From contig CAWHNJ010000022.1 of NCBI GenBank assembly GCA_963830835.1, positions 67,434 through 131,433 of the forward strand: DNA of 64,000 nt, written 5' to 3'. The translations under genes were made by a program, and so were the position numbers. Of the stretch, positions 28,609-49,046 are shown piece by piece; the stretch's first letter is position 1; every line of letters starts with the position of its first letter. Under the pieces are notes generated by a model, which did no database searches, was not told the origin of the DNA, and worked only from the letters and a program-made list of their open reading frames with translations. The DNA comes from an uncultured Actinomycetes bacterium (lineage in GTDB: Bacteria > Actinomycetota > Thermoleophilia > Gaiellales > Gaiellaceae).

Positions 28609-29507
28609 CGGCGACGACCTTCCCACTGATCCCGCGGCGGCGGGTGCTCGGCTTGCCGTTCGGAGCGCTGCACAGCGCGCGCCGCGGTCTCGGCTCTGAC
28701 GTCGCCGGCTCCCGCCCCTACCAGCCGGGGGACGACATCGACCGCATCGACTGGTACGCGTCGGCGCGGCTGTCCCTCGCGCGCGGCTCGGACGAGTTCG
28801 TCGTCCGCGAGCATTTCGCCGAGGAGGCGCCGCGCGTCGTCTCGCTCGTCGACCGCCGGCCGTCGATGTCGATCTTCCCCGAGGGCTGGCCCTGGCTGCA
28901 GAAGCCGGAGGCGATCCGCGGCGCGGTGCGGCTCATCTCCGACAGCGCCATCGCCGCCCGCGGCCTGCTCGGCTACCTCGACGAAGGCGAAGGCGAGCCG
29001 TTCTGGCACCCGCCGCGGAGCCAACACCTGCTCGGGGACGCCGACCTCGAGCGGCCGTTCGAGGCGCCTGCCGACACGCTCACGCGCAGCCTGCACCATC
29101 TCGTCGCGCAGCGCCGCGACCTGCCCGCAGGCACGTTCGTCTTCGTCATCTCAGACTTCCTCGAGCGGCCGAGCCGCGACGACTGGCTGCTCGTGCTCGA
29201 ACGGCGGTTCGAGATCGTGCCGGTGATCGTGCAAGACCTGCTCTGGGAGCAGAGCTTCCCCGACGTGAGCGGCGCGGCGGTGCCGTTCGCGGACGCCGCC
29301 ACCGGCCGCGTCTCACTGGCGGCGCTACGCGAGCACGAGGCGGCCGAGCGGCGCGAGCAGAACGAGACGCGCTTCCGCGACCTCGTCCGCGAGTTCCACG
29401 GGCTCGCGATGGATCCCGTCGTCGTCTCGTCGCACGAGCACCGCGACGTCGTCTTCTCGTTCCTCTCCTGGGCCGACCAGCGGCTGCTGACGAGGGGACG
29501 GCCGTGA
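28605..29507 (+). CDS. DUF58 (vWA-like, MoxR-associated) protein
   Basis: TTG start. GSDVAGSRPYQPGDDIDRIDWYASARL is the DUF58 hallmark (RxYxxGDxxRxIDW). The rest of ORF 28116..29507 is intact. Confidence 0.85.
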   Translation: MTATTFPLIPRRRVLGLPFGALHSARRGLGSDVAGSRPYQPGDDIDRIDWYASARLSLARGSDEFVVREHFAEEAPRVVSLVDRRPSMSIFPEGWPWLQKPEAIRGAVRLISDSAIAARGLLGYLDEGEGEPFWHPPRSQHLLGDADLERPFEAPADTLTRSLHHLVAQRRDLPAGTFVFVISDFLERPSRDDWLLVLERRFEIVPVIVQDLLWEQSFPDVSGAAVPFADAATGRVSLAALREHEAAERREQNETRFRDLVREFHGLAMDPVVVSSHEHRDVVFSFLSWADQRLLTRGRP

Positions 29508-30427
29508 GGCGCGCCGCCCTGCTTGCGCTGCTCGCCGCCGTAGCGCTCGCCGCGGGCTGCGGCGGAGGTGGTGAGGACATCGCGGCGCTGCCTCCCGGAA
29601 GCTTCGTCTCCGCGAGCGGAGAGCTCGGGCCGCCCATCCATCTCTTCGGCGACACGATCGGCGCAGACGTCAGCGTCGTCGTCGACAAGACGAAGCTCGA
29701 CCCGGGACGGGTCAGCCTGAAGACGTTCTTCGAGCCGTACGAGCCGATCGAGGAGATGGAGGTCGCTCGCCGCGAGGCAGGGAATCTGGCGGAGATTCGC
29801 TACCGGCCCGTCTCCGCTGCCTCGAGCGTGCCTGCATCACCTCGACCCTCGGGACGATCCAGAATCCGGCGGAGTGCGCCGCGCACGTTCCGGTTCCAGC
29901 CCGCGCAGGTGCAGTACACCGATCCCGGCGCGGAACAGCCGCGGCTCCTGCGCACGGTCCGGTTCTCGCCGATCGAATCGGTCACGCGCATCAACGCGCA
30001 GGACGTGACGCAGGTCTACGGCTTCCCCTTCCGCGGCAGCTTCACGCCGCTGCCCGCGATCTCGCAGCGCATGTCCGCGACGACGCTCGGCGTCCTCCTG
30101 CTTCTGCTCGCGGCGGCCTTGCTCGTGCTGCCCGTGATCCTGGCCCTCCGCTGGTGGCGCGCACGCAGACAGCCGCCGCCGCCCGAGCCCGAGCCGGAGC
30201 CCACGCCGCTCGAGCGCGCGATCGCACTCGTCGAGTGGTCGCTGGCGAGTGAGAACGGAGCCGAGCGGCGGGCGGCGCTCGACGCGCTCGCCACGGAGCT
30301 GGACGTCGTTGAGTCGAACGGCCTGGCCGACGAGACACGCGTTGCGGCCTGGTCGCCGCCCTCGCCCTCGACCGACGAGGCAGAGCGAATCCTCACCCTC
30401 GTGAAGGAGCGGCATGGCGACGCTTGA
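29504..30427 (+). CDS. Lipoprotein with a C-terminal TM anchor (occupies the BatD-like position)
   Basis: Lipobox LALAAGCGGG. TM segment TTLGVLLLLLAAALLVLPVILAL followed by RWWRARRQPPPPEPEPEP. There may be hidden compensating frameshifts at 29808-29885. Confidence 0.6.
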   Translation: MRRAALLALLAAVALAAGCGGGGEDIAALPPGSFVSASGELGPPIHLFGDTIGADVSVVVDKTKLDPGRVSLKTFFEPYEPIEEMEVARREAGNLAEIRYRPVSAASSVPASPRPSGRSRIRRSAPRTFRFQPAQVQYTDPGAEQPRLLRTVRFSPIESVTRINAQDVTQVYGFPFRGSFTPLPAISQRMSATTLGVLLLLLAAALLVLPVILALRWWRARRQPPPPEPEPEPTPLERAIALVEWSLASENGAERRAALDALATELDVVESNGLADETRVAAWSPPSPSTDEAERILTLVKERHGDA

Positions 30428-31232
30428 GCGCGCGTTCCCGTCGGCCGAGACTGCGCCGCTGCGCCGCGTCGTGCGGCGGACGACGCTCATTCGCATCGCA
30501 CTCGCCCTCGCGCTCGTGGGCGCGCTGGCGCTCGCCTTCCTCGCCGCCCGCGACTCGGACGTGAGGCACGCGCCGCTCGTGCCCTCGGGGACGACCGGCG
30601 TCGTCGTGCTCGATCTCTCGGCGAGCGTCTACGAGGCTGCCTTCGGCTCGACGCTGCAGAAGATGGCGCGGCAGGGCGAGCGCGCCGGCCTCGTCGTCTT
30701 CTCGGACTCGGCCTACGAGGTGCTGCCGCCGGGGACACCCGGCCGCGAGCTGCTGCCCTTCCTCCGCTTCTTCCGCCCCGACCCGAACAGCACGACCGGC
30801 AGCTTCCCACCCAATCCGTGGCAGGACTTCCGCGCCGGCACGCGCATCTCGGCGGGCCTCGCCGAAGCGCACGCGTCGCTCGTCTACGCCGGCGCGAAGA
30901 AGGGCTCGATCCTCATCGTCTCCGACCTGGAGATCCTCCCTGACGAGGTGGCGCGGCTCGGCCACGTGATCGCCGACGTGCGCCGGGACGGCATCGAAGT
31001 CCGCATCCTCCCCGTCAATCCCAGCGCCGAGAAGCGGCGCTCATGGAGGAGATCCTCGGCAAGGGAGCGTTCCTCAAGGAGAAGGCGGAGGAGGCAGCGC
31101 CGAAGGAAGCGCCGGAGAAGGAGAGCCTGCGGCTGGCGGCGCCCTGGCTGTTCATGCTCGCCGCCGGCCTCGTCGTGGTGCTGCTCGCCACCAACGAGCG
31201 GCTGCTCGGGACGTCTGGAGGTGCGCCGATGA
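30414..31232 (+). pseudogene. Membrane-anchored vWA-domain protein (BatA/BatB-like) with two frameshifts (near 31035 and 31205)
   Basis: N-terminal TM segment, then GVVVLDLSASV (DxSxS MIDAS) ...GLVVFSDSA...ILIVSDLE. The middle section is in the ORF 31043 frame (MEEILGKGAFL...WLFMLAAGLVVVLLA). It ends RLEVRR-stop, overlapping the next ATG. Confidence 0.7.
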
Positions 31233-31859
31233 GGTGGCGGCGCTGGCTCGTTCCGGCCTTGGCCGTGCTCTGCGTGCCCGTGGCGGTCGTGCTCGCGCTC
31301 TTCGCCGTCGACGTGCTGCGTGTCGGCGACTCCGTCACCGAGGACGACGTCCGCTTCAAGCAAGGCCAACACTGCAGGCAGGGCTCTTCGACGACCCCGG
31401 TTTCCTGCCCGGTCACATCGCCGCGAAGGCGGTCGGTCTCGAGGACGACCTGCGCTATCGCCGCGCGGTCTGGCTCTATGCCCGCGCCGACCCGAGCAAC
31501 ACGACGGTGTACCTCTCGCCCGCCCAGGAGGCGTTGCGGGCGAGCCTGGAGCCGAAGCTCATCGATGCCAGCCGGGCGGAGACCGATCCCCGACGGCGTT
31601 CGCGGCTGCTCAACCTCTTGGGCATCGTCGCGATGAGCCGCTACGCCGTCGACCCCGGCGACCGCTCCAACACCGTTCGTGCGGCCATCGACTCGTTCAC
31701 GAACGCGATCAACATGGACCCGACCAACGTCGACGCGAAGTTCAACCTCGAGATCGTCCTGCGCGACTTCTTCCACCAGGTCGCGCCCGGCGTCTCCCCG
31801 GACCGCGGCCGGCTGGGCGGGAACGTCGCCGGCGTCGGCCGCGACGGCAGCGGTACTGA
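31229..31859 (+). pseudogene. Membrane-anchored helical protein (occupies the BatC/TPR-like position) with frameshifts near 31370 and 31855
   Basis: MRWRRWLVPALAVLCVPVAVVLALFAV...; second frame LQAGLFDDPGFLPG...AIDSFTNAINMDPTNVDAKFNLEIVLRD (TPR-like). A TGATG junction joins it to the next gene. Confidence 0.5.
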
Positions 31860-32748
31860 TGGACCTGACGTTCCTCACGCCGATGGCGGCGATCTTCGCC
31901 GTGTCGGCGTTGCTGCCGCTCGGCATCTACTGGTTTCGCGAGCGGCGCGCCTCCAAGATCCGGAGTGCGCTCGGGCTGGAAGAGCCGTCGTGGCGCTCCC
32001 GTGCGCCGCTTGTGGCGGCAGTGGCCGCAGTGCCACTGCTGCTCGGAGTCGCGGCCGCACAGCCGGTGCTCGGCACCGAGCGCTCCGTGCCCGAGCGGAC
32101 GGACGCCGAGGCATTCTTCGTCATGGACACGTCGCGCTCGATGCTGGCAGCGGACGGCCCCGAAGCCGCCACACGCTTTGACCGTGCGGTCGAGGTCGCC
32201 TCGGAGATCCACGACCGGATCCCGCAGGTGCGTTCCGGCATCGTGTCGATGACCGACCGCCTACTGCCCCATGCCCTGCCGACCACCGACCGGCGGTGTT
32301 CGAGACGACGCTCCGGCGGTCGATCGGCGTCGAGCTGCCGCCGCCCGCGTTCACCTACTCCACCTATGCGACGTACTACGACATCCTCGCCGGGATCCCG
32401 CAGCGCAAGTTCTTCTCGCCAGCGGCGAAGAAGCGGCTGCTCGTCGTGATGACCGACGGCGAGTCGCGGCCGTTCGGTTCCCAGCTCGGCGCGGCGTTTC
32501 CCGGCAAGCCTCCGATCGAGACCGTCCTCGTCCGCTTCGGGAACGCCGACGAGCGCATCTACACGACGGGCGAGGCAGAGGGCTACGTGCCCGCCAAGAA
32601 CAGCGAGCAGACGATCGCGCGCGTGGCCGACCTGATGGGCGGCCGCGCGTTCTCCGAGGACGACGTGTCCGCGGCCGGCGACGCCGTCGCCGAGATCGTC
32701 GGCGAGGGAGCGACGAACGACAGGAAGATCCCGGGCGCGCGTCGGTAG
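31859..32748 (+). CDS. vWA-domain membrane protein (BatA-like), frameshift near 32290
   Basis: MDLTFLTPMAAIFAVSALLPLGIYWF...AFFVMDTSRSMLA (DxSxS)...; second frame LLVVMTDGESRPF... Confidence 0.75.
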
Positions 32749-35877: not shown

Positions 35878-37635
35878 ATGGACCCGCCGACGTCGTTCTT
35901 CTCGGGCATCACCGAGCAGGAGATCGACAGCGCGCTCAACGGCATCGAGCGCAGGCGTCTCTCGAGCGGAACCGTGCTCATCGGCGAAGGAGACATCCCT
36001 GGAGAGATGTACGTCCTCCGCTCCGGTTCGGCGGAGGTCCTCATGGAGGATCGCCTGGGCGTAAAGCAGACGGTCAGCCGCATCGGCCCCGGCGAGACGA
36101 TCGGGGAGATGTCGCTCCTCACCAGAGAGCCTGCCTCGGCGACTGTTCGCATCTCCGAGGCGGCGGAGGTGCTCGTGCTCGACGAGACCGGCCTCGCAGA
36201 GCTCACCGAGCGACTCCCGGGCCTCGAGCGCAACATGTTCAGGATCCTCGCCGCCCGCCTCGTGCGGGCCAACCGCCTGGTGGTCGGCCGCCAGCCGGGC
36301 CGTCTGACCGTGCTCGACGACCGCGAGTCGCCGCCGCTGCTCGGCTACGCCCTCGCGGCGAGCATCGCCTGGCACACCGGGGCTCGAACGCTGTACGTCG
36401 CACTGACCGACGCACCAGCCGAGGCGCTGGCCGCCCTCGCGAGAGCCTCACAGAAGACCGCCGAGTCGGGGGCGCATGGCGCCGAGCTCGTCGTCGCGAG
36501 CCCGGACGGCGAGTTTGCCCCCGAGCGGATCGAGTCGACGCTGCTTCGACTCGCTGCCGAGTACGACGACGTGGTGGTGCAGTTGCCCCGGGGCGCGACG
36601 AGCGGTCCCGTGAACATCAGTCGCACGATCACGCTTGCTTCGACGGAGGCACCGCCACAGGGATTCGCAGTCGAGCTCGCTCCGGACGCCGCCGCACCGT
36701 TCCTGCGGGGGCCGCTCCTGCGCACCCCTCCGCTGTCCGCCGAAGACGAGGCCGCGCTCGAGCATGGGCTGCTGCCGGCAACGACAGGAGCGGGCCGAGC
36801 GCTGGGACGGCTCTCCAGAAGGTTGGTCGGACTGGAAGTCGGTGTCGCCCTGGGGACGGGAAGCGTGCGTGGCTATGCGCACCTCGGCGTGCTGCGCGGG
36901 CTCGAGCGCGCAGGAATCCCCGTCGACTACCTCGCCGGCACGAGCATCGGAGCAGTCGTGGCCGGAGCGTATTCGCTGGGCGACGTGGACACGGCGACGG
37001 ACTTCCTGGACGAGCTGGGCTCGAGGATGTTCAGGCCCACGCTCTCCAAGCGATCGATGCTTTCGACGCGCGCCATGCGCCGCCTCATCCGTAAGCGGTT
37101 CGGCGACCCGCAGCTGGAGAGCTTGCCCATCCCCCTGGCGGTCGTGGCCACCGATATGGAGACCCACGAGGAAGTGGTGCTCAGTCGCGGAAGCACGACC
37201 GCGGCGCTGTTCGCCAGCTCGGCCATCCCCGGCGTCTTCCCCGCCGTCCGCATCGGAGCGCGGACGCTCGTCGACGGCGGCATCGTCAATCCCGTTCCGG
37301 TCAGCGTCGCAGCAGCCCTTGGAGCGGGCGTCGTGATCTCGGTGCGGCTCGTGTCGGGGGGCGGTATCGGCGAGGAAGTGTCGGAGGAGGTCAAGGGCCC
37401 GGTGCCCAATGTCGTTGCCGCCATCGTCAGGTCGATCGAGACGGTGCAGACGCGCATCAAGGCCGAGACGGATTCGGTGCCGGTCGTCGCGCTCACTCCC
37501 GACCTCACGAAGATCGAGCCGGTCAAGCTGCGGAGGTTTCGCGACGGCCGCCGTTTCGTGCCGGCGGGGGAGGCCGCGGTCGAGGACGCCATGCCTCGAC
37601 TGCGAGCCGCCCTGCCGTGGCTCCGCGAAAGCTGA
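35878..37635 (+). CDS. Cyclic-nucleotide-binding domain plus patatin-like phospholipase (NTE-like architecture)
   Basis: N-terminus: GEGDIPGEMYVLRSGSAEVL...GPGETIGEMSLLTREPASATV. C-terminus: VGVALGTGSVRGYAHLGVL...LAGTSIGAVVAG (GxSxG) ...LVDGGIVNPVP (DGG). Intact, 585 aa. Confidence 0.85.
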   Translation: MDPPTSFFSGITEQEIDSALNGIERRRLSSGTVLIGEGDIPGEMYVLRSGSAEVLMEDRLGVKQTVSRIGPGETIGEMSLLTREPASATVRISEAAEVLVLDETGLAELTERLPGLERNMFRILAARLVRANRLVVGRQPGRLTVLDDRESPPLLGYALAASIAWHTGARTLYVALTDAPAEALAALARASQKTAESGAHGAELVVASPDGEFAPERIESTLLRLAAEYDDVVVQLPRGATSGPVNISRTITLASTEAPPQGFAVELAPDAAAPFLRGPLLRTPPLSAEDEAALEHGLLPATTGAGRALGRLSRRLVGLEVGVALGTGSVRGYAHLGVLRGLERAGIPVDYLAGTSIGAVVAGAYSLGDVDTATDFLDELGSRMFRPTLSKRSMLSTRAMRRLIRKRFGDPQLESLPIPLAVVATDMETHEEVVLSRGSTTAALFASSAIPGVFPAVRIGARTLVDGGIVNPVPVSVAAALGAGVVISVRLVSGGGIGEEVSEEVKGPVPNVVAAIVRSIETVQTRIKAETDSVPVVALTPDLTKIEPVKLRRFRDGRRFVPAGEAAVEDAMPRLRAALPWLRES

Positions 37636-37639
37636 CGGC

Positions 37640-39220
37640 TTAGACGAGCCCGCCGCGGTAGCGCCACGGGCCCGGGTCGAGGCGGATGCCGCGCTTGCGG
37701 CAGAGCTCGCGGACGGAGTCGAGCACGATTCCCCCCTTCCCGTGGAGCCTGCGATCAACGAGGTCGAGCACGGCGAAGCCGTCGGGAGGCTCGCCGGCAA
37801 CCTCGAGCGTGAGCACGACAACCTCGCCGTCGGTCTCCGGTGGCTCGAACGTCGTGTCGACCTTCTCGACGAACAGCACGAGCGACGTCGTGTCGTCCGC
37901 TCGAATCGCAATGGAGTGGTCGGAGCCGGCGGCGACGTCGACGCCACGCAGCTCGAGCAACTCGCGGAGATCGTCGAGCATCCGCCGCACGAGCTGCGGC
38001 TGCCGCGCGCGCGGCACCGGGCGCGCTGAGACGCCGACTGGTCTTCGCCGGCACACCGATCGCCAGCTTGCCGCGCGGGGACGTCCGAGACGACGTACGA
38101 GTTCGACGCGACGATGGCCTCCCGGCCGAGCCGGCAGCCCGCATAGACGACGGCGCCGAGCCCGACCTGCGCGCGGTCCTCGAGCACGATCGGCGCGAAC
38201 CGGTTCTCGAAGCCCTCGAGCACCGAATGGCCGATGTTGTGCGTGACGAGCATCGACCGCATCGTCACGAAGACCTCCCGGCCGATGACGACCGGCCGGC
38301 AAGGGTTGATGAACGCCTCGTCGCCGACGAAGACGAGGTCGCCGACAGCGAGCGTCGCCCACGGGTCACGCCAGCCGCCGCCGCCGACCCGCACGTCACG
38401 CCCCAGGTGGCCGTTGGCGCCGATGAAGGCACGGCGGCACTGAATCTCGAGCCGCGGGCCAATGTTCGTGAGAGCGCCCACCGCGAACACCTCCTCGCAG
38501 CGAACCCAACCGTCGTCAGCCGATCTCGACACCGTCTCCAACCACGATCCGCGGCGCGATGAGGATCGTGCCGTCGCCGAGGCGCACGCCGTCGCCGATC
38601 GAGGCGCCGTGGCGCCGGTACGCATCGCAGCGCTCGTCGGACGAAAGCGACCGGAACGTGTCCGGATCCGACCGTAGCGACTCGAGGAAGCCCTCCTCCA
38701 GGCGTCCTTCCTCCTCGGGAAGCTCCAGCACGGCGGGTAGCGTCACGCCTTCGAGTGAGATGCCGTGGAAGAGCCCCGGCACCGTCACGACCTCCTCGGC
38801 CGCGCGGGCAGCGACGAGGCGCTCCACGTCCTCGGCCGTGATGAAGCCGTCCTTCTCGATCGTCGCCAGGTCGATGCCGTGCTCCTCGGCCAGCTCGACG
38901 GCCCTCCGCGTCGCGTTCGCGGGCCCGGCCGGCTGCACCGACGGGGCCTTCGCCGGGCGAGACTCCTCGGCTGCGGCGAGCTCTTCCTCGCTCTCGGCGA
39001 TCACGGCGATGCGGCCGCCCAGCTCGACCTCGTCACCCTCGCCGTAGAGGTGGTGGAGGATCCCGTCACCCGGCGCTTCGAGCTCGAGCAGCGCCTTCGA
39101 GGTCTCGACGAGGCAGACGACCTGCCCCTTCTGCACCCGGTCGCGGTCCGGCACGAGCCACTCGACGAGCAGCGCCCACTCGGTGTTCGCGTCTTCGCGG
39201 GTGAGAACGAGCTCGAGCAG
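37640..39220 (-). pseudogene. Hybrid E2-like protein: lipoyl-type domain, E3/peripheral-subunit-binding domain, hexapeptide-repeat (LbH) acyltransferase and an unknown C-terminal domain. About 3 frameshifts; non-canonical (CTG?) start.
   Basis: ELVLTREDANTEWALLVEWLVPDRDRVQKGQVVCLVETSKALLELEAPGDGIL (lipoyl fold). ATRRAVELAEEHGIDLATIEKDGFITAEDVERLV (PSBD). ASIGDGVRLGDGTILIAPRIVVGDGVEIG / WVRCEEVFAVGALTNIGP...IGANGHLGRDVRVGGGGW...LEDRAQVGLGAVVYAGCRLGREAIVASNSYVVSDVP (LbH). Frames change near 38520, 38085 and 38030. Confidence 0.6.
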
Positions 39221-39223
39221 CCG

Positions 39224-40245
39224 TCAGCTCCTGACGATCCCGAGCGCCCGCACCGCGCTGACGACGTCGTCGACGCCCGGCAGCACCGCCTCCTCGAGCG
39301 TGGGCGCCGCGGGGATGATGCCGTCCCGCGCCGCGATCCGCTCCACGGGCCGCCGCAGGTCCTCCCACGCCTCGCTCTGCACGCGGGCCGCGATCTCGGC
39401 GCCGACGCCGCCGGTCAGCGTCCCCTCCTCGACCGTGACGAGCGAGCCCGTGCGGGCGACGGACTCCAGCACCGGCTCCAGATCGAGCGGCAGCAGCCGG
39501 CTCAGGCAGACCACCTCGGTGAACAGCTCGTCCTCGATGATCAGCCGTACCGCCGCCTCGAGCACGATCGGCAGCATCCCTCCGTACGTGACGATCGTCG
39601 TCTCGCCGCCGGCGAAGCCGTTGCCCGAGAAGGAGAGCGCCGGATACGGACCCGTCGGTCTCCCGGCAGGCGAGATCGCCGAGCCGCCCGTCCACCGGCC
39701 TGCGGTTCGGCCGTCCGTACATGAGCTTGTTCTCGATGAAGAAGACGGGATCGTCGTCGTCGATCGCCGCGTGCAGCAGCGCGCCGATGTCGTGGCACTC
39801 GCTGGGCGCGACGACCTTGATGCCCGGGCACGCCGAGCAGCACCTTCTCGAGCGTCTGGCTGTGCGTCGGGCCGTAGCCGCGCCGCCCGCCCATCGGCGT
39901 GCGGATGACGAGCGGCACGCGCACCTGGTCGTCGAACATCGCGCGGAACTTCGCGATCCCGTTGACGGTCTGGTCGAAGCCGAGCGCGATGAAGTCGCCG
40001 AACATGATCTCGAGGATCGGCCGCCAGCCGCGCAGCGCCATGCCGGCGGCGACGCCGAAGATCGCGCCCTCCGAGACGGGCGTCGTGATCACCCGCTGCG
40101 GCCACGTCGACGAGAGGCCCTGCGTGACCTTGAACGCGCCGCCGTACGGGTCGAGCACGTCCTCGCCGAGCAGGTAGACGTCGTCGCGGCTCTCGAAGGC
40201 CTCGGTCAGCGCCGAGTTGAGGACCGTGGCGCAGCGCTCTTCCAC
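39224..40245 (-). pseudogene. 2-oxoacid dehydrogenase E1 beta subunit (set 1) with about two frameshifts (near 39835 and 39650)
   Basis: VEERCATVLNSALTEAFESRDDVYLLGEDVLDPYGGAFKVTQGL...TPVSEGAIFGVAAGMAL...RTPMGGRRGYGPTHSQ / IKVVAPSECHDIGALLHAAIDDDDPVFFIENKLMY / TIVTYGGMLPIVLEAA... Confidence 0.8.
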
Positions 40246-40246
40246 G

Positions 40247-41151
40247 TCAGCCCGCCTCGGGCATGGCCGGCGGAGACGCGTCGGCTGTCGGCGATCGCCT
40301 CGGTCAGCCGGCGCTCGCATCGCGTCCTCGATCGACGTCCGCTGCTCGTCCGGCAGCCGCGCGCCCGCGATGCCGAGCGGATCGCGCTGCGCGCGCTGCC
40401 TCGATCTCCGCCGGGTCGCGGTTGTCGTCGCCCTTCGAGTGCGGGCTGTAGCGGTACGTGTTGAGCACGAGGAAGAACGGCCGCCCGCTCGCGCGCACCT
40501 TGGGCACGATCTCGGCGGCCGCGTCCCGGATCTCGGCCACGTCGGTCGTGTCCAGCTCCGCCGTCTCGATCCCGAAGGCTGCGCCGCGGTCCGCGATACC
40601 GCCCGCGAGCGTCAGGTGGCTGGGCGTCGACTGCGCGTAGAAGTTGTTCTCGACGACGACGAGCAGCGGCAGACCCCAGCGCGAGGCGATGTTGAGGCTC
40701 TCGTAGACGACGCCCTGGCCGAGCGTGCCGTCGCCGATGAAGGCGGTGGTCACCGCGCCGCTCCCGCGCTCCCGCTCGGCGAGCGCCATGCCGGTCGCGA
40801 CCGGCATCGTGCTCCCGAGCACGCCGTTCGAGTAGAAGCCGCCGTTAGCAGAGGTGCTGGCTGCCGCCCTTGCCGCCGCAGACGCCGCTCTGCGCGCCCC
40901 ATCACCTCGCCGCAGCAGCCCGTCCACGTCGTCGGTGAACGCGAGGTAGTGGCCGTGGCAGCGGTGGTTCGAGACGATCGACGTCGCGCCCCGGCTCGGA
41001 GGTGGTCGATCACGCCGACGGCGTTCGCCTCCTGGCCGATGTACGTGTGCGTCGTGCCGGCGAGCTTGCCGAGCGAGAAGAGCTCGAGCAGGCTCTCCTC
41101 GAAGCGACGGATGAGGTACATCCGCTCGTACAGGCGGGCGAGATCGGCCAT
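40247..41151 (-). pseudogene. TPP-dependent 2-oxoacid dehydrogenase E1 alpha subunit (set 1) with at least four frameshifts
   Basis: MADLARLYERMYLIRRFEESLLELFSLGKLAGTTHTYIGQEANAVGV / IVSNHRCHGHYLA / NGGFYSNGVLGSTMPVATGMAL...AFIGDGTLGQGVVYESLNIASRWGLPLLVVVENNFYAQ (TPP motif). The C-terminus is scrambled over three frames. Confidence 0.75.
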
Positions 41152-41218
41152 CGCTTGATCTTCGCTCAGCGTCTGGGGTTTGCCTGCCACGACTCGCGAG
41201 ACGGTACCCGAAGGACAA

Positions 41219-42414
41219 CTACAGGTAACCCGAGATCGGACAGGCGCTGCTCGACGAGCGCCTCCTCCTCGGCGCTGAGGCACCGCCGCGACACGCTCTC
41301 GAGCTCGTCGTACAGCCGCTCACGCACGTCGCCGGGCACGTCGTCCGGCACGGCTCTCGAGCTCGCGCGGATCGACGTCGAGCCGGTACGCCTGCTCCTC
41401 GCCCGGACTGGACCTGGACCGTCAGCTTCCACGGCGGCATGCCGCAGCGCGAGCTGCGACACGGCGCCCTTGTCGGTGCCCACGATCAAGCGCCGGGCGG
41501 TCGCCCTGCTCCGTGCCGTCGGCGAGCGGGAGCAGCGACGTCCCGTCGAGCCCGTCGATCGGTGCGTCCGCCAGCTCGAGCAGCGTCGGCATGAGGTCGA
41601 CGAGGCTCACCTGCGAGGGGACGGCAGCGGGCTCCAGCCGCCCCGGCGCGGAGACGATGAGCGGCACGCGCACGATCTCGTCGTAGAGGTCGGCGCCGTG
41701 CATGTGGTACGTGCCCTTGACCTGCGTCTTGTCCTCGTAGCGCTCGCCCCACGACTCGCCGTGGTCGGAGACGAACGCGACGGCCGTCGTCTCGCGCAGC
41801 CCGAGATCGTCGAGCGCCTGGAGAAAGCCTGCGAAGTGCGTCTCCGACTCGCGCTCCACCGACTGCCGGTAGCTCTCGCGCAGCGCCTCGAGCGCGGCGG
41901 GATCGCCCGACTGGATGCCGGCGATGATGTCCTCCTTCGCCTGGCGCCACTCCTTGCGCTCGGAGTGGAGCACGCCGTACGGCATGTGCGTCGTCCAGCT
42001 GTGGAACCACAGGCAGAACGGCCTCGAGCCGCGCTCGCGCAGCCACTCGACCACGCCGTCGAGCCGCTCGCTCGTCCCCGCGACGTTCGCCTCCGGAAAG
42101 TCGCGGAACAGATACCGCTCGTCGAAGACGAAGCTCCCCGTCTCGTAGCCGTAGGCCGCGGCAACCGTGAACAGCGTCGGCTGCGCGACGTCGAGCTCGG
42201 CGTCCCAGTGCAGGTACCCGTGATGATGCGGGTAGAGGCCGGTGATCATCGACGCGGTCGACGGGGCAGTCCACGGCGCTGCGCTGATTGCCTGGTCGAA
42301 GCGAACGCCGCCCGCGGCGAGCTCGTCGATGGTCGGCGTGGCGACCCGCCCTGCTCCGTAGCAGCCGACGTGGTCGAGGCGTAGCGCGTCGGCGACCCAG
42401 ACGACGAGGTTCAT
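41219..42414 (-). pseudogene. Sulfatase-like hydrolase/transferase (alkaline phosphatase superfamily) with several C-terminal frameshifts
   Basis: MNLVVWVADALRLDHVGCYG...AISAAPWTAPSTASMITGLYPHHHG...AFVSDHGESWGE...PLIVSAPG.... The C-terminal 90 aa are spread over three frames and end LSDLGYL-stop. Confidence 0.7.
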
Positions 42415-43787
42415 GCGGCCAGCTGCGCGGCGAGGCTGCGGCCGCGCATGTCCGATGGGATGTCCAGGCCGAGCAGGTCGAGCACGGTCGGGGCGACGTC
42501 CAGCAGGTGCGCGTCCAGCCGGCCGCGGGCGTCGACACCAGCGCCTGCGGCGACGATCATCCCGTCCTGGGCGTGGTTCGCGTCGTCCGGGCCCGTGTCG
42601 TTCTCGAGCGTGTGCACGCCCTCGTCCCCGCCGATCGTCGCCACCGAGCGCCACAGCAGGTCGCCGAAGATGACGATGAGGTCGGGCGCGACCCCGTTCA
42701 CCTCGGCGTAGAGCTCCTCTGGCCGGTAGACACGCGTCTCCATCGGTCGCCCCTGGTCGTCAGGGATCGCCGCCAGCCGCTCAGCAAGGTCGTCCCGCAC
42801 ACGCTCGTAGTCCTCGGGCGGGACGACGCCCGCCGGCTCTCGACCCTGGACGTTGAGGAAGATCCGCGCGTAGTAGCCGCCGTCGCCCCAGGCCGTCGTG
42901 CTCGACCAGTCGATGCCGACCTCGTGCGGCAGACAGACGCCGTTCGGCTCCGCTTCGAGGGCGAGCAGCCCTTCCCGCCGCAGCCACTCGTTGACGCGGA
43001 TGCCGCCGTCGAGGCGCTTCGCGCCGTGGTCGGAGACGACGAGCACGAGCGTCTCCTCGTCCGCGTGCCCGAGCAGGCGGCCGACGAGGCCGTCCACGTG
43101 CTTGTAGTAGTCGAGGATCGCGGTCTCGAACTCGTTGCCCGGCTCGTGCTTGCGGTGCTCGGCATCCATGAACTTCCAGAAGCCGTGATGGATGCGGTCA
43201 TGGCCCATCTCGACCATCGTGAACAGCTTCCACGGCCGCGTCGCGAGCAGGTGCTCGGCGAGCTGGAAGCGTCGGTCGGTCATCTCGTAGAGCTGCTCGA
43301 GCAGCCATGCCTTGTTCTCCGTGCGGAAGTCCTTGACATCGAAGACGTACTCGCCCACGACCTCCGCCACCTCGTCCTTGAGGCCGGGCGGGTACGTGTA
43401 CGTGCTCTCGACCGACGGCGTGAGAAAGCACGTGACGAGCGCGCCCCGCAGAGGCCGCGGCGGATACGTCCCCGGCACGCCGAGCACGATCGACGAGCCG
43501 CCGGCTCTCCCCACGAGGTCCCACAGCCGCGGCGCCTTGATGGCGCTGCCGTCGGCGATGAACCTCCCGTCGTAGGTGTGGTCCGAGCGGTTGCGAAACC
43601 CGTAGACGCCGAGATCGCCCGGGGTGCGGCTCGCCATCATGCAGGACCACGCCGGGACGGTGATCGGCGGCACGACCGACGTCAGGCGGCCGTGCACGCC
43701 GCGATCCATCAGCGCGGACAGCGTCGGCAGCTCGTCCCGCCATGCCTCGACGAGGGACGGCTCGGCGCTGTCCAGGCCGATCACCAT
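42411..43787 (-). CDS. Type I phosphodiesterase/nucleotide pyrophosphatase family protein (alkaline phosphatase superfamily)
   Basis: MVIGLDSAEPSLV...VVPPITVPAWSCMMASRTPGDLGVYGF...LVVSDHGA...NDTGPDDANHA. Intact. ATGA overlap with the sulfatase-like gene. Confidence 0.8.
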   Translation of the reverse strand: MVIGLDSAEPSLVEAWRDELPTLSALMDRGVHGRLTSVVPPITVPAWSCMMASRTPGDLGVYGFRNRSDHTYDGRFIADGSAIKAPRLWDLVGRAGGSSIVLGVPGTYPPRPLRGALVTCFLTPSVESTYTYPPGLKDEVAEVVGEYVFDVKDFRTENKAWLLEQLYEMTDRRFQLAEHLLATRPWKLFTMVEMGHDRIHHGFWKFMDAEHRKHEPGNEFETAILDYYKHVDGLVGRLLGHADEETLVLVVSDHGAKRLDGGIRVNEWLRREGLLALEAEPNGVCLPHEVGIDWSSTTAWGDGGYYARIFLNVQGREPAGVVPPEDYERVRDDLAERLAAIPDDQGRPMETRVYRPEELYAEVNGVAPDLIVIFGDLLWRSVATIGGDEGVHTLENDTGPDDANHAQDGMIVAAGAGVDARGRLDAHLLDVAPTVLDLLGLDIPSDMRGRSLAAQLAA

Positions 43788-43810
43788 CGCCTTCTGTACC
43801 CGGGCCTGGG

Positions 43811-43841
43811 CCACGGGCGCCCATGATAGATCGGCGCCCGT
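43811..43841. terminator. Perfect 10-bp inverted repeat CACGGGCGCC-N11-GGCGCCCGTG between the FAD oxidase stop and the phosphodiesterase start
   Basis: Read directly from the sequence. There is no U-tract, so it could be either a terminator or an operator. Confidence 0.35.
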
Positions 43842-43858
43842 GCGAGCCGGCCGCGACG

Positions 43859-45274
43859 TTACGAGCCCGCGGGCGTGATGTTGTTGTTGCGCCGGAAGAA
43901 GTTGTCCGGGTCGTACTTCGCCTTGATCTCCGAGAGCCGGCGGAGGTTCTTGCCGTGGGCGCTGTCCACGCCGACGTCCGTTCCCTCGTCCGAGATACCC
44001 GTGAAGTTGAGATAGACCGCACCGGTCCCGAATTCGTTGATCTCGGACCACGCGTCTCGCACCCAGCTGACGTTGTCGTCGTTCTCGGACGGATCGGTCC
44101 AGTTGCCGTCGACCGAGGCCATCCAGGGCGCCGTCCGCTCCGTGAACGCCGTGTCCTCCGCTCCCACGTTGTTGATCGCCCCTCCCCACAGGAACGTCAC
44201 CATCATCGTCAGCGGCGCAGGACGTGCTCGCGCAGTCTTGACGATCACGTCGATCGCATCGTCCGACAGCTCCTTCAGGAACGCAGACTTCCAGTAGCTC
44301 TGGTAGTGGTTGCGCGGGAAGAACCCGTCGAAGGCGCTCTGCACCGCGGTATACGGCATCGGCTGCGAGATGTCTGCGAACGGCGTGCCGAGCTCACGGA
44401 GCGGCTGGAGTGCCTTCATGCCTTCGTCCGCGTCCCCCGCATAGACCCCGCCGATCACGAGACAGTCCTGCTCGTGAACCTCGGGCGGCAGGCTCGGATC
44501 GGCGGGCATCGTCACGCCGATGGCGAGCGCCGTGACCTCGTCGGGAGCGGAGTTGCCGAAGTCGCGGAACTTCCGCAAGACCTCGTCCGCATCGGCCAGC
44601 GGATAGAAGACGCCCGCAAAGGCGACGATGGGGCCGAGCGGATGGAGGCGAAACGTGAATGATGTCGCGATCCCGAAGTTCCCGCCTCCGCCACGAATCC
44701 CCCAGTAGAGATCGGGATTCGAGTCCGCTGAAGCGATCCGGACTTGCCCGTCTGCACCGACGATCTCTGCCTCCACGAGGTTGTCGCACGAGAGCCCGTA
44801 CTTGCGGCGGAGCCAACCCTCGCCGCCTCCGAGCGTGAGCCCCGCGATCCCGGTGTCCGACACGATTCCGCCCGGTGCAGCCAGCCCGTGGAGCTGTGTC
44901 TCGCGGTCGACGTCGCCCCAAAGGGCGCCGCCCTGCGCGCGCACGAGGCGCGCCTCGGCGTCGACGAAGACGCCGTTCATCGGCGACAGGTCGATGAGCA
45001 TGCCCCCGTCTGTGCTCGACAGCCCGGCCACCGAGTGCCCGCCGCCGCGCACGGTGACTTCGAGACCGTTCTCGCGGGCGAAGTTGACCGCGACGACGAC
45101 GTCGGCTGTCCCCGTGCACTGCACGATGAGGGCCGGCTGGTCGGCCTGCATGGCGTTGTACGGGGCCCGCACGTTCTCGTACCCGGAGTCGCCCGGCGTG
45201 AGGACATTGCCGCGGAGGAGCAAACGAAGCTCGTCCAGCGCTTCGCCCGAGATCGTCGAGAGGATCGTGGCCAT
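43859..45274 (-). CDS. FAD-linked oxidase with a berberine-bridge-enzyme (BBE) C-terminal domain
   Basis: VTVRGGGHSVAGLS...DLYWGIRGGGGNFGI...YLNF...NLRRLSEIKAKYDPDNFFRRNNNI. Intact, 471 aa. Confidence 0.9.
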   Translation of the reverse strand: MATILSTISGEALDELRLLLRGNVLTPGDSGYENVRAPYNAMQADQPALIVQCTGTADVVVAVNFARENGLEVTVRGGGHSVAGLSSTDGGMLIDLSPMNGVFVDAEARLVRAQGGALWGDVDRETQLHGLAAPGGIVSDTGIAGLTLGGGEGWLRRKYGLSCDNLVEAEIVGADGQVRIASADSNPDLYWGIRGGGGNFGIATSFTFRLHPLGPIVAFAGVFYPLADADEVLRKFRDFGNSAPDEVTALAIGVTMPADPSLPPEVHEQDCLVIGGVYAGDADEGMKALQPLRELGTPFADISQPMPYTAVQSAFDGFFPRNHYQSYWKSAFLKELSDDAIDVIVKTARARPAPLTMMVTFLWGGAINNVGAEDTAFTERTAPWMASVDGNWTDPSENDDNVSWVRDAWSEINEFGTGAVYLNFTGISDEGTDVGVDSAHGKNLRRLSEIKAKYDPDNFFRRNNNITPAGS

Positions 45275-45434
45275 AGCTAGCCCCCTTTCGAGCCCGCCAT
45301 CGAGCGGGACAGGTCAATCCACGCTAAGCCCTGGGAGCATGCCAAAGGTCCGGCCGATCAGCCGATTGGATTCAGGTCGGCGCGGGAACGAAGAGCTGGC
45401 CTAACACGGCGACCGGGAGGGGTAGTCTGAGCCG

Positions 45435-46305
45435 ATGCCCGGGAAGAGCGTCGAAGCGCGGTGCGCCGTTCCGGCGGCCGAGCTGAGACCGCTCGTCGAC
45501 AGCTACAGCGGCATTCGCTATACGGGCTTCGCACCTGGCACCCATCTTGGGCTGCCGTCGCGCCATCTGACGGTGGCCGTGAGTCTCGGCGTCCCCGCTC
45601 AGCGTCGCCCTTTCAGACCTGTCGACTATGGCTCGGCCGTTCCGCGCTCTCGCCGCCGGATTGCACACGCGCCCTGCGCTCGTCTTCCACGACGGCAGCC
45701 AGGACGCAGTCTCGTTCGAGCTGACGCCGCTGGGGGCCCGCTCTCTGCTCGGAGTGCCTGCGGCGGAGCTGGCGGGCACCGTCGTTGAGCTCGACGACCT
45801 GCTCCCGGGCGACGCGGCCGAGCTGATGGATCGCGTTGCCGCAGCAGCGGACTGGTCAGTCCGCTTCGCCGTCCTCGACGATGTGCTTGCTCCGACGCGC
45901 CCGTCGCACGGACGTGTCCGAAGGTGCCGTCGAGCGCGCGTGGCACAGGATCGTCAAGACCGGCGGCCGAATTCGCGTCGACGAGCTCGCGCGCGAGATC
46001 GGGCTACAGCCGACGTCAGCTCACGAAGCGTTTCACGGGTGAGTACGGCGTCACGCCCAAGCAGGCGCTCGCGCGTCGTCCGCTTCGAACAGTCGTGGCA
46101 CGCATTGCGGCGTCTCGAACGCCGGCGCCGTACGTCGCCGGCTCGCAGGCGCCCGTCCCTCGCCGAGATCGCCGTCAGGTGTGGCTACTCCGACCAGTCT
46201 CACCTCGCGCGCGAATGGAACGAGCTGGCCGGCTGCCCACCTTCGGCGTGGCTCGCCCAGGAAGAGCTCCCATTCGTCCAAGACGCCGGATCCGAGCCCG
46301 CGTAG
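45435..46305 (+). pseudogene. AraC-family transcriptional regulator with at least five frameshifts
   Basis: HTH pieces are scattered over three frames: RIRVDELAREIG / YSRRQLTKRFTGEYGVTPKQ / VVRFEQSWHALRRLE...SLAEIAVRCGYSDQSHLAREWNELAGCPPSAW. Confidence 0.7.
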
Positions 46306-46315
46306 CCTGAACGGC

Positions 46316-46762
46316 ATGAACACACACGTCTCCCCCAATCTCGGATACACGGATGCGAGGGCGGTGATTCGCTTCCTCGTCGACGCCCTCGGCTTCGAGG
46401 TGGCCGTCCTCTACGAGCGGAGCTCCGACGGCAGTGTCGCCCACGCCGAGCTGCGCTGGCCAGGCGGCGGCAGCGTCATGCTGCACACGGCCGAAGGCAA
46501 GCCCGTTGCCGATCTGCCAGCGCCTTCGACAGCTGGCGGGTACCCCGCGTACTCCATCCATCTCGGCACGAGCGACCCCGACGAGCTGTTCGTGCACGCC
46601 GTGGCTGCAGGAGCGAACGTGGTGCGCAAGGTCGAAGACTCCGCCGTCGGCACGCGCGGCTTCATCGTCAGCGACCCCGAAGGTCTCTACTGGAGCGTGG
46701 GCACGCCGCTCCCGGCGTTGACGCGCGACGGCGAAGGACACTGGCGGCCGCGACACGACTAG
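46316..46762 (+). CDS. VOC/glyoxalase family protein
   Basis: MNTHVSPNLGYTDARAVIRFLVDALGFEVAVLYE...VAHAELRWPGGGSVML...TRGFIVSDPEGLYWSVG. Intact. Confidence 0.8.
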   Translation: MNTHVSPNLGYTDARAVIRFLVDALGFEVAVLYERSSDGSVAHAELRWPGGGSVMLHTAEGKPVADLPAPSTAGGYPAYSIHLGTSDPDELFVHAVAAGANVVRKVEDSAVGTRGFIVSDPEGLYWSVGTPLPALTRDGEGHWRPRHD

Positions 46763-47682
46763 AGGATCTCCACGACGTCGTCATCCGCGAGCACGTGGGC
46801 GGCGCCGACGCGTTGTCCGTCGAACTTCGCGGACGGTCCCCAGACACGCGCGCCCTTGCACGCCTCGGCGAGATCGTGGTGGACCGTGGCCGCGGCGTCG
46901 ACGACCGTCGCTCCCGGCATGAGTGCCATAGCCTCCGCCTCGGTGTCGCCCGGCCGGCGCAGGAACACGCGAATGAGCCCCGTCAGCCGCCACAGCTCGT
47001 CGCGCAGCCGATCGAGACTCTCGTCGTCGAGCACGGAGACACCCACAGCCGGCAGCCCGGCCGCGCGCGCGATCCGGTCGACCGCACCCGGGTCAGCCTC
47101 GTCGAGCTTCGTCACGGCGAGGATCGCCCGCTGGGAGATCGCAGCCCGCTCGAGCTCGCCGAGCACGGCCGTCAGCCCGTCGAGCGGCGCCGAGGCGTCC
47201 TGGCAGAGCACCATCGCATCGGCGCTGCGCAGCACGCCCAGTAAAGCCCGGCCGTCGCCGCGCCCGTCGGCTGCGCCCTCGATCAGGCCGGGGATCTCCA
47301 CCAGCTGGACGAGCACGCCGCGCAGCCGCGTCAGCGCCGGCACCGGCCTGAGCGTCGTGAACGCATAGTCGCCCGTCTTGATCTGGATCGACGACAGCGC
47401 CTGGAGCAGCGACGACTTGCCCGCGTTGGGCGGGCCGACGATCGCGATCTGCGCCGCGCCCTCCCGGCGCACGGCGATGGCGTCGCGATGGACGACCTTC
47501 TTGCGGACGCGAGACGCTTCGATCTCGGCGTTCACCCACTTGCGAATGTCCGCGTACGGCCCGTTCCGGTACCCGGGCAGCTCGAGGAGAATGCTCTTGA
47601 GCTCCCTGATCCGCTCGGCGCCGTCCTTGCCGACGAGCCGGCGCTTGATGAGCTGCATCTGCGTGCGATGCGGCATCGGCAT
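46759..47682 (-). CDS. OBG/DRG-type GTPase with a C-terminal TGS domain
   Basis: IAIVGPPNAGKSSLLQAL (G1), YAFTTLRPVPA (G2), VEIPGLIEGA (G3), VTKLD (G4). The C-terminal LIRVFLRRPGD...VHHDLAEACKGARVWG...RVGAAHVLADDDVVEI is TGS-like. Confidence 0.8.
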   Translation of the reverse strand: MPMPHRTQMQLIKRRLVGKDGAERIRELKSILLELPGYRNGPYADIRKWVNAEIEASRVRKKVVHRDAIAVRREGAAQIAIVGPPNAGKSSLLQALSSIQIKTGDYAFTTLRPVPALTRLRGVLVQLVEIPGLIEGAADGRGDGRALLGVLRSADAMVLCQDASAPLDGLTAVLGELERAAISQRAILAVTKLDEADPGAVDRIARAAGLPAVGVSVLDDESLDRLRDELWRLTGLIRVFLRRPGDTEAEAMALMPGATVVDAAATVHHDLAEACKGARVWGPSAKFDGQRVGAAHVLADDDVVEIL

Positions 47683-47954
47683 CGCGATCACCTTCCCTTC
47701 GTTCGTGCGGGAAGGCGCGCGCTCTACCCGGCCGCTTCCGCGGCCACGGTGGCGCGTCCCTGTCCCGCCGCTCTCTCGGACGCTGGAGGTCGAGAGCGGC
47801 GGATCAGCCTGTTTTGTTCGAACAGGCGTGGAGCCAGGATCGTTCTGCTGCACTCATCGCGCTGCGAGGGTACCGCATGTGGCGAACGGCCTGCCTTGCA
47901 CGCTCGTGTCGACTGTGCCATTGTCGGCCCGTGAACTCGGCCAAAGGAGCCCAG

Positions 47955-48540
47955 ATGGACACGACGCGCCGCCCGTTCCACTTCATCGTCGCTCTCGCGG
48001 GAGCACTCGCTGGTCTGCTGCGCTGCTTGCCGCGACAGCCTCCGCAGGGCCGGCACCGCAGACATCGAGCCGCCGGACCCGCTCGATCCGCGCACGACCG
48101 CGCCGGACAGCCGACTCTTCCTCGTTACGCACGCGATCGGCTTCCAGACCTACCAGTGCAACGCGACCGGCACGGCCTGGGTTTTCACCGGCCCCGTGGC
48201 CACCCTGTACAAGACGACCGGCAAGTCGAAGCCGATCGGTACGCACTTCCGGAACCCCGTGACCACTCGTCCCGTCTGGGAACTGAAGGACGGCAGCTCC
48301 GTCGAAGCGGCAGCGATCGTGACGGTAGCCGCGGGAGCGGGGAACATTCCGTGGCTGCTGCTCCAGGCAGCTGTGACGACGGCCGGCGCCGACGGCGACC
48401 GCCTGACTCAGACCACGTACATCCAGCGGCTGAACACGGTGGGCGGCGTGGCTCCCCCGGTGCCGTGTTCACCCGGCACGACCATGGCCGTCCCCTACAC
48501 AGCCGACTACTTCTTCTGGAGAGCGCAGGGCGCCGGCTGA
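47955..48540 (+). CDS. DUF3455-family secreted protein with 1-2 frameshifts in the signal-peptide region
   Basis: AAAGGAG SD, then MDTTRRPFHFIVALAGALAGLL. Body: LFLVTHAIGFQTYQC...PVATLYKTTGKSKPIGTHF...PVWELKDGS...IPWLLLQA...TYIQRLNTVGGVAP...VPYTADYFFW. Confidence 0.65.
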
Positions 48541-48560
48541 AGGAGCTTGACCACGGACGC

Positions 48561-49046
48561 GTGAACGCTCCCACTCGACCGTCGGTTCACGGCACCGCAG
48601 CAGGCGAGGCGTACTGGGGCCCCGGCGACAGGTACGTCTTCCACGTCACGGGCGCCGAATCGGGCGGCTCGATGTTCGCGTTCGACTGCCTCGTCGGCCC
48701 GGGCGGTGGACCGCCGCCGCACCGCCACCTCGCCGAGGACGAGCTGTTCTTCCTCTACGAGGGCTCGATCGAGCTCCACGCCGCCGGCGAGACCCACGTG
48801 GTCTCGGCCGGCGAGGCGATCTTCGTGCCGAAGGGAACGGCCCACAGCTACAGGAACGTCGGTGATGGCAGCGCGCTCATGTACACGATCTACACGCCCG
48901 CCGGCATGGAGGGGTGGTTCCGCGAGGTCTTCGACCGGGTCCAGCCAGGAGACTTCGACAAGACGCCGCCGCCCGCCGACGAGGCGATGATCGCGCGGAT
49001 GCTCGAGGCGGGGCCGCGCTACAACGTCGAGTGGGTCTCGGAGTGA
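48561..49046 (+). CDS. Cupin-domain protein
   Basis: GGPPPHRHLAEDELFFLYEGSIELHAAGETHVVSAGEAIFVPKGTAHSYRNVG (cupin motifs 1 and 2). Confidence 0.75.
   Translation: MNAPTRPSVHGTAAGEAYWGPGDRYVFHVTGAESGGSMFAFDCLVGPGGGPPPHRHLAEDELFFLYEGSIELHAAGETHVVSAGEAIFVPKGTAHSYRNVGDGSALMYTIYTPAGMEGWFREVFDRVQPGDFDKTPPPADEAMIARMLEAGPRYNVEWVSE

Follow-up and report, generated by a model that had tools for sequence, protein, structure and literature searches.

A Conserved Gaiellales Operon Combines 2-Oxoacid Dehydrogenase-Type E1 Subunits, a Lipoyl/Left-Handed β-Helix Hybrid Protein, and Alkaline Phosphatase Superfamily Enzymes

RESULTS AND DISCUSSION

An Accessory Operon of One Gaiellales Family

The DNA analyzed here, referred to as the window (64,000 nucleotides; positions 67434–131433 of contig C22), is part of a metagenome-assembled genome (MAG) of an uncultured Gaiellaceae bacterium (G000; 2.08 Mb, 22 contigs, 69% G+C, rated 54% complete). 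It carries an operon with the gene order [phosphodiesterase-like]–sulfatase-fold–E1α–E1β–hybrid, which is a conserved accessory unit of one soil Gaiellales family. As far as the lipoyl arm, the operon resembles a 2-oxoacid dehydrogenase complex, yet its hybrid E2-like protein does not contain the E2 core by which such complexes are defined. The best explanation, to which we give a probability of roughly 0.55, is that a real conserved operon, with two unrelated neighbors and in an error-laden assembly, encodes a system in which a lipoyl arm transfers acyl groups to an acceptor other than CoA.

Codon-position G+C plots together with stop-to-stop translations reveal a single unbroken minus-strand coding run from 45274 to 37640, along which the best reading frame switches about 10 times. 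From upstream to downstream, the operon comprises genes for a phosphodiesterase/pyrophosphatase-like protein of the nucleotide pyrophosphatase/phosphodiesterase (NPP) fold (42411–43796; PF01663, Pfam Phosphodiest 3.3e-48), a sulfatase-fold enzyme of the alkaline phosphatase (AlkP) superfamily (41219–42414; PF00884, Pfam Sulfatase 1.9e-38), the thiamine pyrophosphate (TPP)-binding subunit E1α (40247–41151; Pfam E1_dh 1.2e-34), E1β (39224–40260; Pfam Transket_pyr 1e-19, Transketolase_C 7.7e-24), and the hybrid “E2” (37640–39220), all on the minus strand. The phosphodiesterase stop overlaps the start of the sulfatase-like gene in an ATGA (GCATGAACC), an overlap that the original prediction, made from the window alone, had reported. 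The gene content and strands it gave are likewise borne out, with Pfam matches for all of the genes it named, including an FAD-linked oxidase of the berberine bridge enzyme (BBE) type and an AraC-type regulator, both discussed below.

The relatives' records are Gaiellales, Gaiellaceae, and Thermoleophilia MAGs, many with “MFD” isolate names. The closest well-assembled relative is G022 (88% complete, 6 contigs), to which the window has a nucleotide identity of 86.6%; identity to G021 is 84%, and G010 is a single 3.1 Mb contig. Scanning one genome per species gave 70 loci, of which 69 are clear hybrid relatives, nearly all from Gaiellales/Thermoleophilia MAGs, with one each from Betaproteobacteria, Gammaproteobacteria, and Acidobacteria. 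Linkage was counted by tblastn with the intact G022 proteins, as colinear genes upstream of the hybrid, the denominators being the loci with sufficient flank. E1β is present in 66/67 loci, E1α in 60 of 61, and the sulfatase-like gene in 57/60, being missing only from the three non-actinobacterial loci; the phosphodiesterase is present in 40 of 52 and the BBE oxidase in 0/52. These counts define the unit as a four-gene core with a frequent fifth gene, the phosphodiesterase, and two chance neighbors. The operon of G010 runs sulfatase-like–E1α–E1β–hybrid, with the phosphodiesterase orthologue 1.3 Mb away among paralogues, and the E1α–E1β–hybrid triad extends to a small number of Proteobacteria and Acidobacteria. 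Of the 25 genomes searched in the genus (G000 counted), 8 yielded the hybrid, as did 9 of the 151 sampled across the class, all nine from one family.

The description of the locus as an unassigned, tightly linked set uniting a TPP-dependent E1, two AlkP-superfamily enzymes, and a hybrid E2 holds for these operon genes. None of the curated NCBIfam models reaches its cut-off for any of the five operon proteins, and full-text literature searches returned nothing on a fused lipoyl-hexapeptide protein, on E1 genes placed in this kind of setting, or on the AlkP phosphohydrolases, the family of the phosphodiesterase. No Rfam match was found in window positions 37000–47000 or upstream of the intact G022 operon, and a promoter/terminator scan gave no signal exceeding chance.

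The Hybrid Protein

The hybrid consists of a lipoyl domain, an Ala/Pro/Glu linker, an E3/E1-binding domain, a left-handed β-helix (LbH) acyltransferase domain, and a C-terminal α/β domain. Pfam matches in the window copy are Biotin_lipoyl (2.1e-10), E3_binding (2.7e-4; 21.5 bits, just under the cut-off of 23.7), and Hexapep (9e-4), the last being under its cut-off in this broken copy and clear in an intact homologue. A lipoyl domain with a predicted lipoylation site and a peripheral-subunit-binding domain are both present. PF00198, the chloramphenicol acetyltransferase (CAT)-like E2 core, has no match in the hybrid, and the LbH domain occupies that region.

The intact G022 hybrid is a 525-codon frame that aligns over its full length with 47 homologues. 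At least 976 homologues were found at E ≤ 1e-10, the only names on which are “acetyltransferase-like isoleucine patch superfamily enzyme” and “biotin/lipoyl-containing protein.” The lipoyl motif VET(S/T)KA (VETSKA in the window copy) has an invariant lysine, and the β-helix motifs GGGG(H/R)RDPW and THN(I/V)GHS..EGFENRF are invariant as well; the lipoyl lysine and these motifs are found in 68–69 homologues. The C-terminal α/β domain of ~125 residues is strongly conserved and ends in PGPWRYRGGL (PGPWRYRGGLV in the window).

An AlphaFold2 model of the hybrid has a mean predicted local distance difference test score (pLDDT) of 77, with the lipoyl, binding, and C-terminal α/β domains modeled confidently; for the C-terminal domain (residues ~400–524), whole-protein searches gave no match specific to it. 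The lipoyl domain matches its expected fold with Z 12.4 and a root-mean-square deviation (rmsd) of 1.9 over 87 aligned residues. By sequence, the LbH domain is nearest to WcaF, 3ECT, and the maltose/galactoside O-acetyltransferases (MAT/GAT); by structure, using VIA-align of the AlphaFold2 model, it is nearest to LpxA (Z 14.9, rmsd 2.9, 174 residues) and LpxD (Z 13.3). Since matches within ~2 Z units include CoA-dependent sugar N-acyltransferases, the likeness to LpxA/LpxD is to be taken as a hint only. The hybrid scores 61.6 bits against the WcaF-family model NF007797, which has a cut-off of 192, and does not qualify as a member of the WcaF/MAT/GAT group.

The start of the hybrid looks like a conserved CTG, judging from the sequence of the junction. 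The hybrid is in frame with the E1β TGA (39226–39224), beginning one codon after it, and the sole available start is the CTG at 39220–39218. This CTG sits 7 nt behind an AGGAG, and the same letters are present in G022 (L013 12841–12849). Other clades begin the same N-terminus (MLEIVLT...) with ATG.

E1 Subunits and the Canonical Genes Encoded Elsewhere

E1α carries the motif FIGDGTLGQG...VVENNFYA, and its nearest solved chain is human pyruvate dehydrogenase (PDH) E1α (6CER, 1.1e-34). The nearest solved chains of E1β are the E1β subunits of PDH and branched-chain α-ketoacid dehydrogenase (BCKDH) (1IK6, 3.7e-57), and the window E1β protein is 96–98% identical to the intact G021 and G010 copies of the G022 gene. 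E1_dh, Transket_pyr, and Transketolase_C are all present, as in a heteromeric TPP-dependent E1. The NCBIfam PDH E1 models (TIGR03182/NF006667) do not assign the pair to PDH: E1α scores 244.7 (PDH_E1_alph_y) against a cut-off of 393.85, and E1β scores 238.8 against 321.

No E3 is encoded inside the cluster, in agreement with the original prediction; the best match in G000 is instead an E3-like gene on contig C5 (14805–16171). This gene is broken across two frames, and its 398.6 bits fall short of the 408.8 cut-off, which the G010 match exceeds. Four canonical E2 genes (PF00198) are present elsewhere in the genome. One stands beside the E3-like gene (C5:12613–16171), and a canonical E2 core is also found within the window at 58333–59001 (C22:125766–126434).

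The Two AlkP-Superfamily Enzymes

The sulfatase-fold protein has a threonine at the nucleophile position (WTAPSTASMITG). The motif T-(A/C)-P-S-(T/M) is found in 58/58 of the orthologues covering it, in contrast to the C/S-x-P-x-R of sulfatases, so that the formylglycine Cys/Ser is replaced throughout and a sulfated conjugate, which had been proposed as a possible substrate, is unlikely. The protein does have the sulfatase fold and the Pfam Sulfatase domain, and its sequence matches in the PDB are S1 sulfatases (best 6e-23); the type I (formylglycine) sulfatase motif is absent. The orthologues also keep SDHGESWG and W(A/T)THMPY.

The phosphodiesterase scores 165.5 bits against a PF01663 cut-off of 23 and has the domain, the fold, and the Thr-nucleophile and metal-ligand motifs of an NPP-type enzyme, its activity being predicted from these. 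The AlphaFold2 model has a pLDDT of 97.5, and the best Foldseek matches are ENPP1, Xac NPP, and ENPP6 (E ~1e-19 to 1e-16, 13–17% identity, template modeling (TM) score ≤0.69 on the target), with no PDB sequence match at E 0.001 or better. Conserved motifs are PPITVPAW, SDHGA, and DANHAQDG. Its family comprises 3,152 cluster representatives at E ≤ 1e-30, in bacteria and archaea, for which the only name is “predicted AlkP superfamily phosphohydrolase/phosphomutase.” A phosphonoacetate hydrolase (PhnA-like) identity was considered and dropped, there being no PhnA among the NCBIfam matches or the listed Foldseek matches, which does not amount to an exclusion.

The conserved threonine at the nucleophile position of both enzymes makes phosphoryl chemistry likelier than desulfation. 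In this respect they are similar to the Thr-nucleophile members of the AlkP superfamily (the NPPs, and the LtaS/EptA-type members of Pfam Sulfatase), the phosphodiesterase sharing the NPP fold and threonine motif and the sulfatase-fold protein sharing the threonine. They differ from these members in that no signal peptide or membrane anchor was seen in either protein when the N-termini were read by eye.

Proposed Acyl Transfer from the Lipoyl Arm

In the known 2-oxoacid dehydrogenase complexes, the lipoyl arm hands acyl groups to CoA via the CAT-like E2 core. The operon is similar to the heteromeric-E1 complexes (pyruvate, branched-chain 2-oxoacid, and acetoin dehydrogenase) with respect to the usual E1α/β domains, which are closest to those of PDH E1, to a following gene that starts with a lipoyl domain, a flexible linker, and a subunit-binding domain, and to a putative E3 that is encoded elsewhere, as E3 is in many genomes. 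In contrast to these complexes, the hybrid has an LbH domain and an unmatched C-terminal domain without a PF00198 core, the E1 scores fall far under the NCBIfam PDH cut-offs, and the operon includes one or two AlkP-superfamily genes. The LbH acyltransferases (WcaF/maltose/galactoside type and LpxA/LpxD) share the LbH fold and supply the best sequence and structure matches; the hybrid differs from them in reaching no curated cut-off and in its proposed donor, which would be acyl-dihydrolipoyl-lysine and not acyl-CoA or acyl-acyl carrier protein (acyl-ACP). We know of no LbH acyltransferase that is fused to lipoyl and subunit-binding domains. In tetrahydroisoquinoline antibiotic pathways, a PDH-like E1 and a lipoyl E2-like protein, QncN/QncL, reportedly deliver a C2 unit to a non-CoA acceptor; there, a canonical E2-type transferase is said to be retained and the unit to be passed to the ACP of a nonribosomal peptide synthetase (NRPS) line, whereas the transferase of the operon is of the LbH type and no ACP or NRPS gene is seen nearby.

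In the proposed mechanism, a PDH-type E1 α2β2 would decarboxylate a 2-oxo acid, the simplest candidate being pyruvate (giving an acetyl group), and would reductively acylate the lipoyl-lysine on the hybrid's own N-terminal swinging arm. The LbH domain would stand in for the CoA-forming E2 core, with a protein-tethered thioester as its donor, as acyl-ACP is for LpxA and LpxD, and would acylate an acceptor other than CoA at a hydroxyl or amino group; this acceptor is probably a sugar or a sugar phosphate. The subunit-binding domain would recruit E1 and the genome's shared E3, encoded elsewhere, which would reoxidize the dihydrolipoyl arm. The two AlkP-superfamily enzymes, predicted to be cytoplasmic, would act on the acceptor or product by building or trimming a phosphoester or phosphodiester group, with no removal of sulfate.

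The context of the proteobacterial copies points to a sugar acceptor, since they lie amid methyltransferases, a WbmS-like deacetylase, a hexapeptide transferase, and a glycosyltransferase, i.e., in a glycan-type cluster; the neighbors at the Acidobacteria locus (a GNAT-family gene, a desaturase, and proteins of unassigned function) are less clear. In Gaiellales, the sulfatase-fold protein with its threonine as a constant partner, and the NPP-fold protein as a frequent one, suggest a phosphoester or phosphodiester group on the acceptor or product. We tentatively suggest, at less than even odds, that the operon may be a CoA-independent acylation machine that acylates a phosphorylated sugar or polyol made or unmasked by the two Thr-nucleophile enzymes.

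Several observations weigh against acyl transfer of this kind. The 2-oxo acid, the acceptor, and the roles of both phosphatase-family enzymes in the mechanism are guesses. The LbH core is modeled weakly (pLDDT ~35–65), as would be expected when a trimeric fold is modeled as a monomer. The phosphodiesterase is loosely associated with the other genes, being unlinked in G010 and having orthologues in genomes in which no hybrid was found, and in one MAG (L022 6857–10500) the sulfatase-like gene is followed directly by the hybrid, with no E1 genes at the locus. Glycosyltransferase and other glycan genes are lacking from the Gaiellales loci, whose other neighbors (an aspartokinase, MFS and ABC transporters, and a protein with an fn3 domain) follow no theme. 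A search for the lipoylation family PF03099 gave no match in G000 (54% complete) and only one BPL/LplA/LipB-family gene in each of G022 and G010.

An ordinary catabolic 2-oxoacid (or acetoin-type) dehydrogenase, in which the LbH domain is a non-homologous replacement of the E2 core and makes acyl-CoA, is the main rival reading. LbH acetyltransferases as a class bind CoA or acyl-CoA, a subunit-binding domain used with a shared E3 is typical of catabolic complexes, and the want of glycan genes in the Gaiellales loci is as such an enzyme would have it. However, the genome already contains four canonical E2 cores, and the operon is a patchy accessory trait, as its presence in 9/151 class genomes shows. 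The nearest sequence relatives of the LbH domain are sugar O-acetyltransferases, the proteobacterial copies lie among glycan-modification genes, and the obligate sulfatase-fold partner (57/60 loci) is left unexplained. We consider acyl-CoA formation unlikely and prefer transfer from the lipoyl arm to a non-CoA acceptor.

In 22 loci (e.g., L050 10533–12590), the next gene downstream of the hybrid, on its strand, encodes the fn3-domain protein (~690 residues), which is absent from the window.

The BBE-Type Oxidase and the AraC-Type Regulator

The original prediction had treated seven genes as one cluster, naming linkage in orthologous loci as one point on which this grouping should stand or fall. 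Five of the seven are linked; linkage fails for the oxidase and the regulator, which are chance neighbors and not members of the conserved operon. The oxidase gene (43859–45274, minus strand) is intact, and its product has the domains of the vanillyl-alcohol oxidase (VAO) superfamily, with matches to FAD_binding_4 (2.6e-31, 108.6 bits) and BBE (3.6e-10, 40.1 bits) that both exceed their cut-offs. Its best NCBIfam matches, of the BagK/FevA1 type, reach 240 where the cut-off is 800 and thus assign it no particular function. The AraC-type gene (~45440–46305, plus strand), which is divergent from the oxidase, encodes an N-terminal DUF6597 domain, with a weak match, and an HTH_18 domain that is divided between two frames; the gene as a whole is spread over at least three.

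Both genes could belong with the operon in a single pathway or small biosynthetic cluster that acts on a (glyco)conjugate bearing phosphate or sulfate, in which the oxidase would do the tailoring and AraC would be the regulator. The oxidase stop lies 34–62 bp upstream of the phosphodiesterase, on the same strand, so that the two could be co-transcribed, and the regulator diverges from the oxidase. Against this arrangement, the oxidase is in none of the 52 loci noted above, and the 4.7 kb segment that contains both genes (43842–48587) is missing beside the operon in both G022 and G021. A cupin gene adjoins the G022 operon, and in the window the segment separates the two. The oxidase belongs to a family with multiple paralogues in the relatives, and the closest G022 copy (68% identity) is separated from the operon by ~110 kb; the 1.5 kb of flanking sequence fetched on each side of that copy contains no AraC match. 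The segment also holds a glyoxalase-family gene (46340–46759), a GTPase gene with MMR_HSR1 and TGS domains (46762–47853, minus strand), and a DUF3455 gene (47935–48537), and the absence of a formylglycine motif speaks against sulfate esters. A single seven-gene pathway is thus largely refuted by synteny, and we regard it as very improbable; a five-gene operon with two unrelated neighbors is the reading we retain.

Among the BBE paralogues in more than 10 related genomes, many have exactly one in-frame TAG inside the match, which could be due to an overrun of the gene boundary or to an assembly error, or could be real.

Frameshifts in the Operon

The original prediction reported many frameshifts in the E1α, E1β, hybrid, sulfatase-like, and AraC genes and none in the phosphodiesterase and oxidase genes. 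Frameshifts are indeed present in the assembly, and the oxidase is clean, but they are very probably not a biological property of the genes. The frame breaks in the operon are 18 single-base insertions, of which 5 are in the sulfatase-like gene (41491, 41439, 41406, 41346, 41231), 8 in E1α (40999, 40979, 40913, 40892, 40844, 40391, 40320, 40286), 2 in E1β (39829, 39650), and 3 in the hybrid (38518, 38073, 38039). In nucleotide alignments, the differences that break the frame between 41491 and 38039 each consist of a single additional base in the window, absent from both G022 and G021; the alignments to these two genomes contain no frame-breaking deletions, and the insertion sites are not homopolymers. 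In G022, the phosphodiesterase through to the hybrid form five uninterrupted frames. The phosphodiesterase is free of frame breaks, as reported, if it is read from the ATG at 43796; a start at the upstream ATG at 43824, which is usable in G022, brings in one further +1 insertion at ~43817.

The frameshifts could be real, marking a pseudogenized copy of the operon that is decaying in the population and of which only the phosphodiesterase and oxidase are kept. The crowding of the breaks into four adjacent genes, with two neighbors spared, and the accessory nature of the operon, which is often not found in relatives, would suit such decay. However, the breaks comprise 18 insertions and zero deletions, without association with homopolymers. 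Substitutions relative to G022 are as strongly biased to third codon positions in the broken genes as in the intact gene (0.038/0.012/0.241 by codon position for E1β and 0.071/0.032/0.318 for the intact phosphodiesterase). Comparable single-base extras are present in unrelated genes of the window (34157, 34845, 34936, and ~35796), and the E3-like gene on contig C5 is likewise divided over two frames. G021 (L019) has a patch of its own, with ~19 single bases that the window lacks, across the region equivalent to window positions 29500–32300, which suggests that patchy +1 insertion errors are general in these long-read MAGs.

Independent contigs also speak against real frameshifts: soil-metagenome short-read contigs omit one base at 38038, 38074, 38519, 39654, 40892, 40912, 40979, and 40997, sites that coincide with, or lie within a few bases of, eight of the window insertions, and so lack the listed insertions at the sites they cover. 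These contigs derive from related populations (92–99% identity) and not demonstrably from the source sample, which was probably not among the sequencing runs covered, the best of them containing only 0.20 of the sampled words; for this reason they point to insertions that are private to the G000 assembly and not strictly to errors, which counts on the other side. As crudely measured, the share of sequence in long open coding-like frames is 46% for G000 and 9% for the 10 kb bin containing the cluster; the same measure gives 72–75% for the relatives' loci L013, L016, and L017, 53% for L014, 60% for L015, and 0% for L018, to which the G+C filter of the measure is evidently inapplicable.

The frameshifts are private to the G000 assembly and are very probably errors of long-read assembly, decay of a real pseudogene being highly unlikely. 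A patch of such errors, and not differential decay, best accounts for their uneven distribution among the genes.

Implications

The operon is surprising and testable, whereas the seven-gene combination and the uneven “decay” are not real features. Adjacency in a single genome over-extends the boundaries of a cluster, and patchy +1 insertion errors in long-read MAGs can mimic the decay of pseudogenes. The constant pairing with a Thr-nucleophile sulfatase-fold protein provides a concrete handle on the substrate. If the proposed mechanism holds, cells would be able to acylate acceptors directly from pyruvate-type precursors without acyl-CoA; a CoA-independent acylation machine, if that is what the operon encodes, would be a functionally new class among the 2-oxoacid dehydrogenase complexes and would supply acyl groups for modifying glycans or metabolites from a source not previously known.

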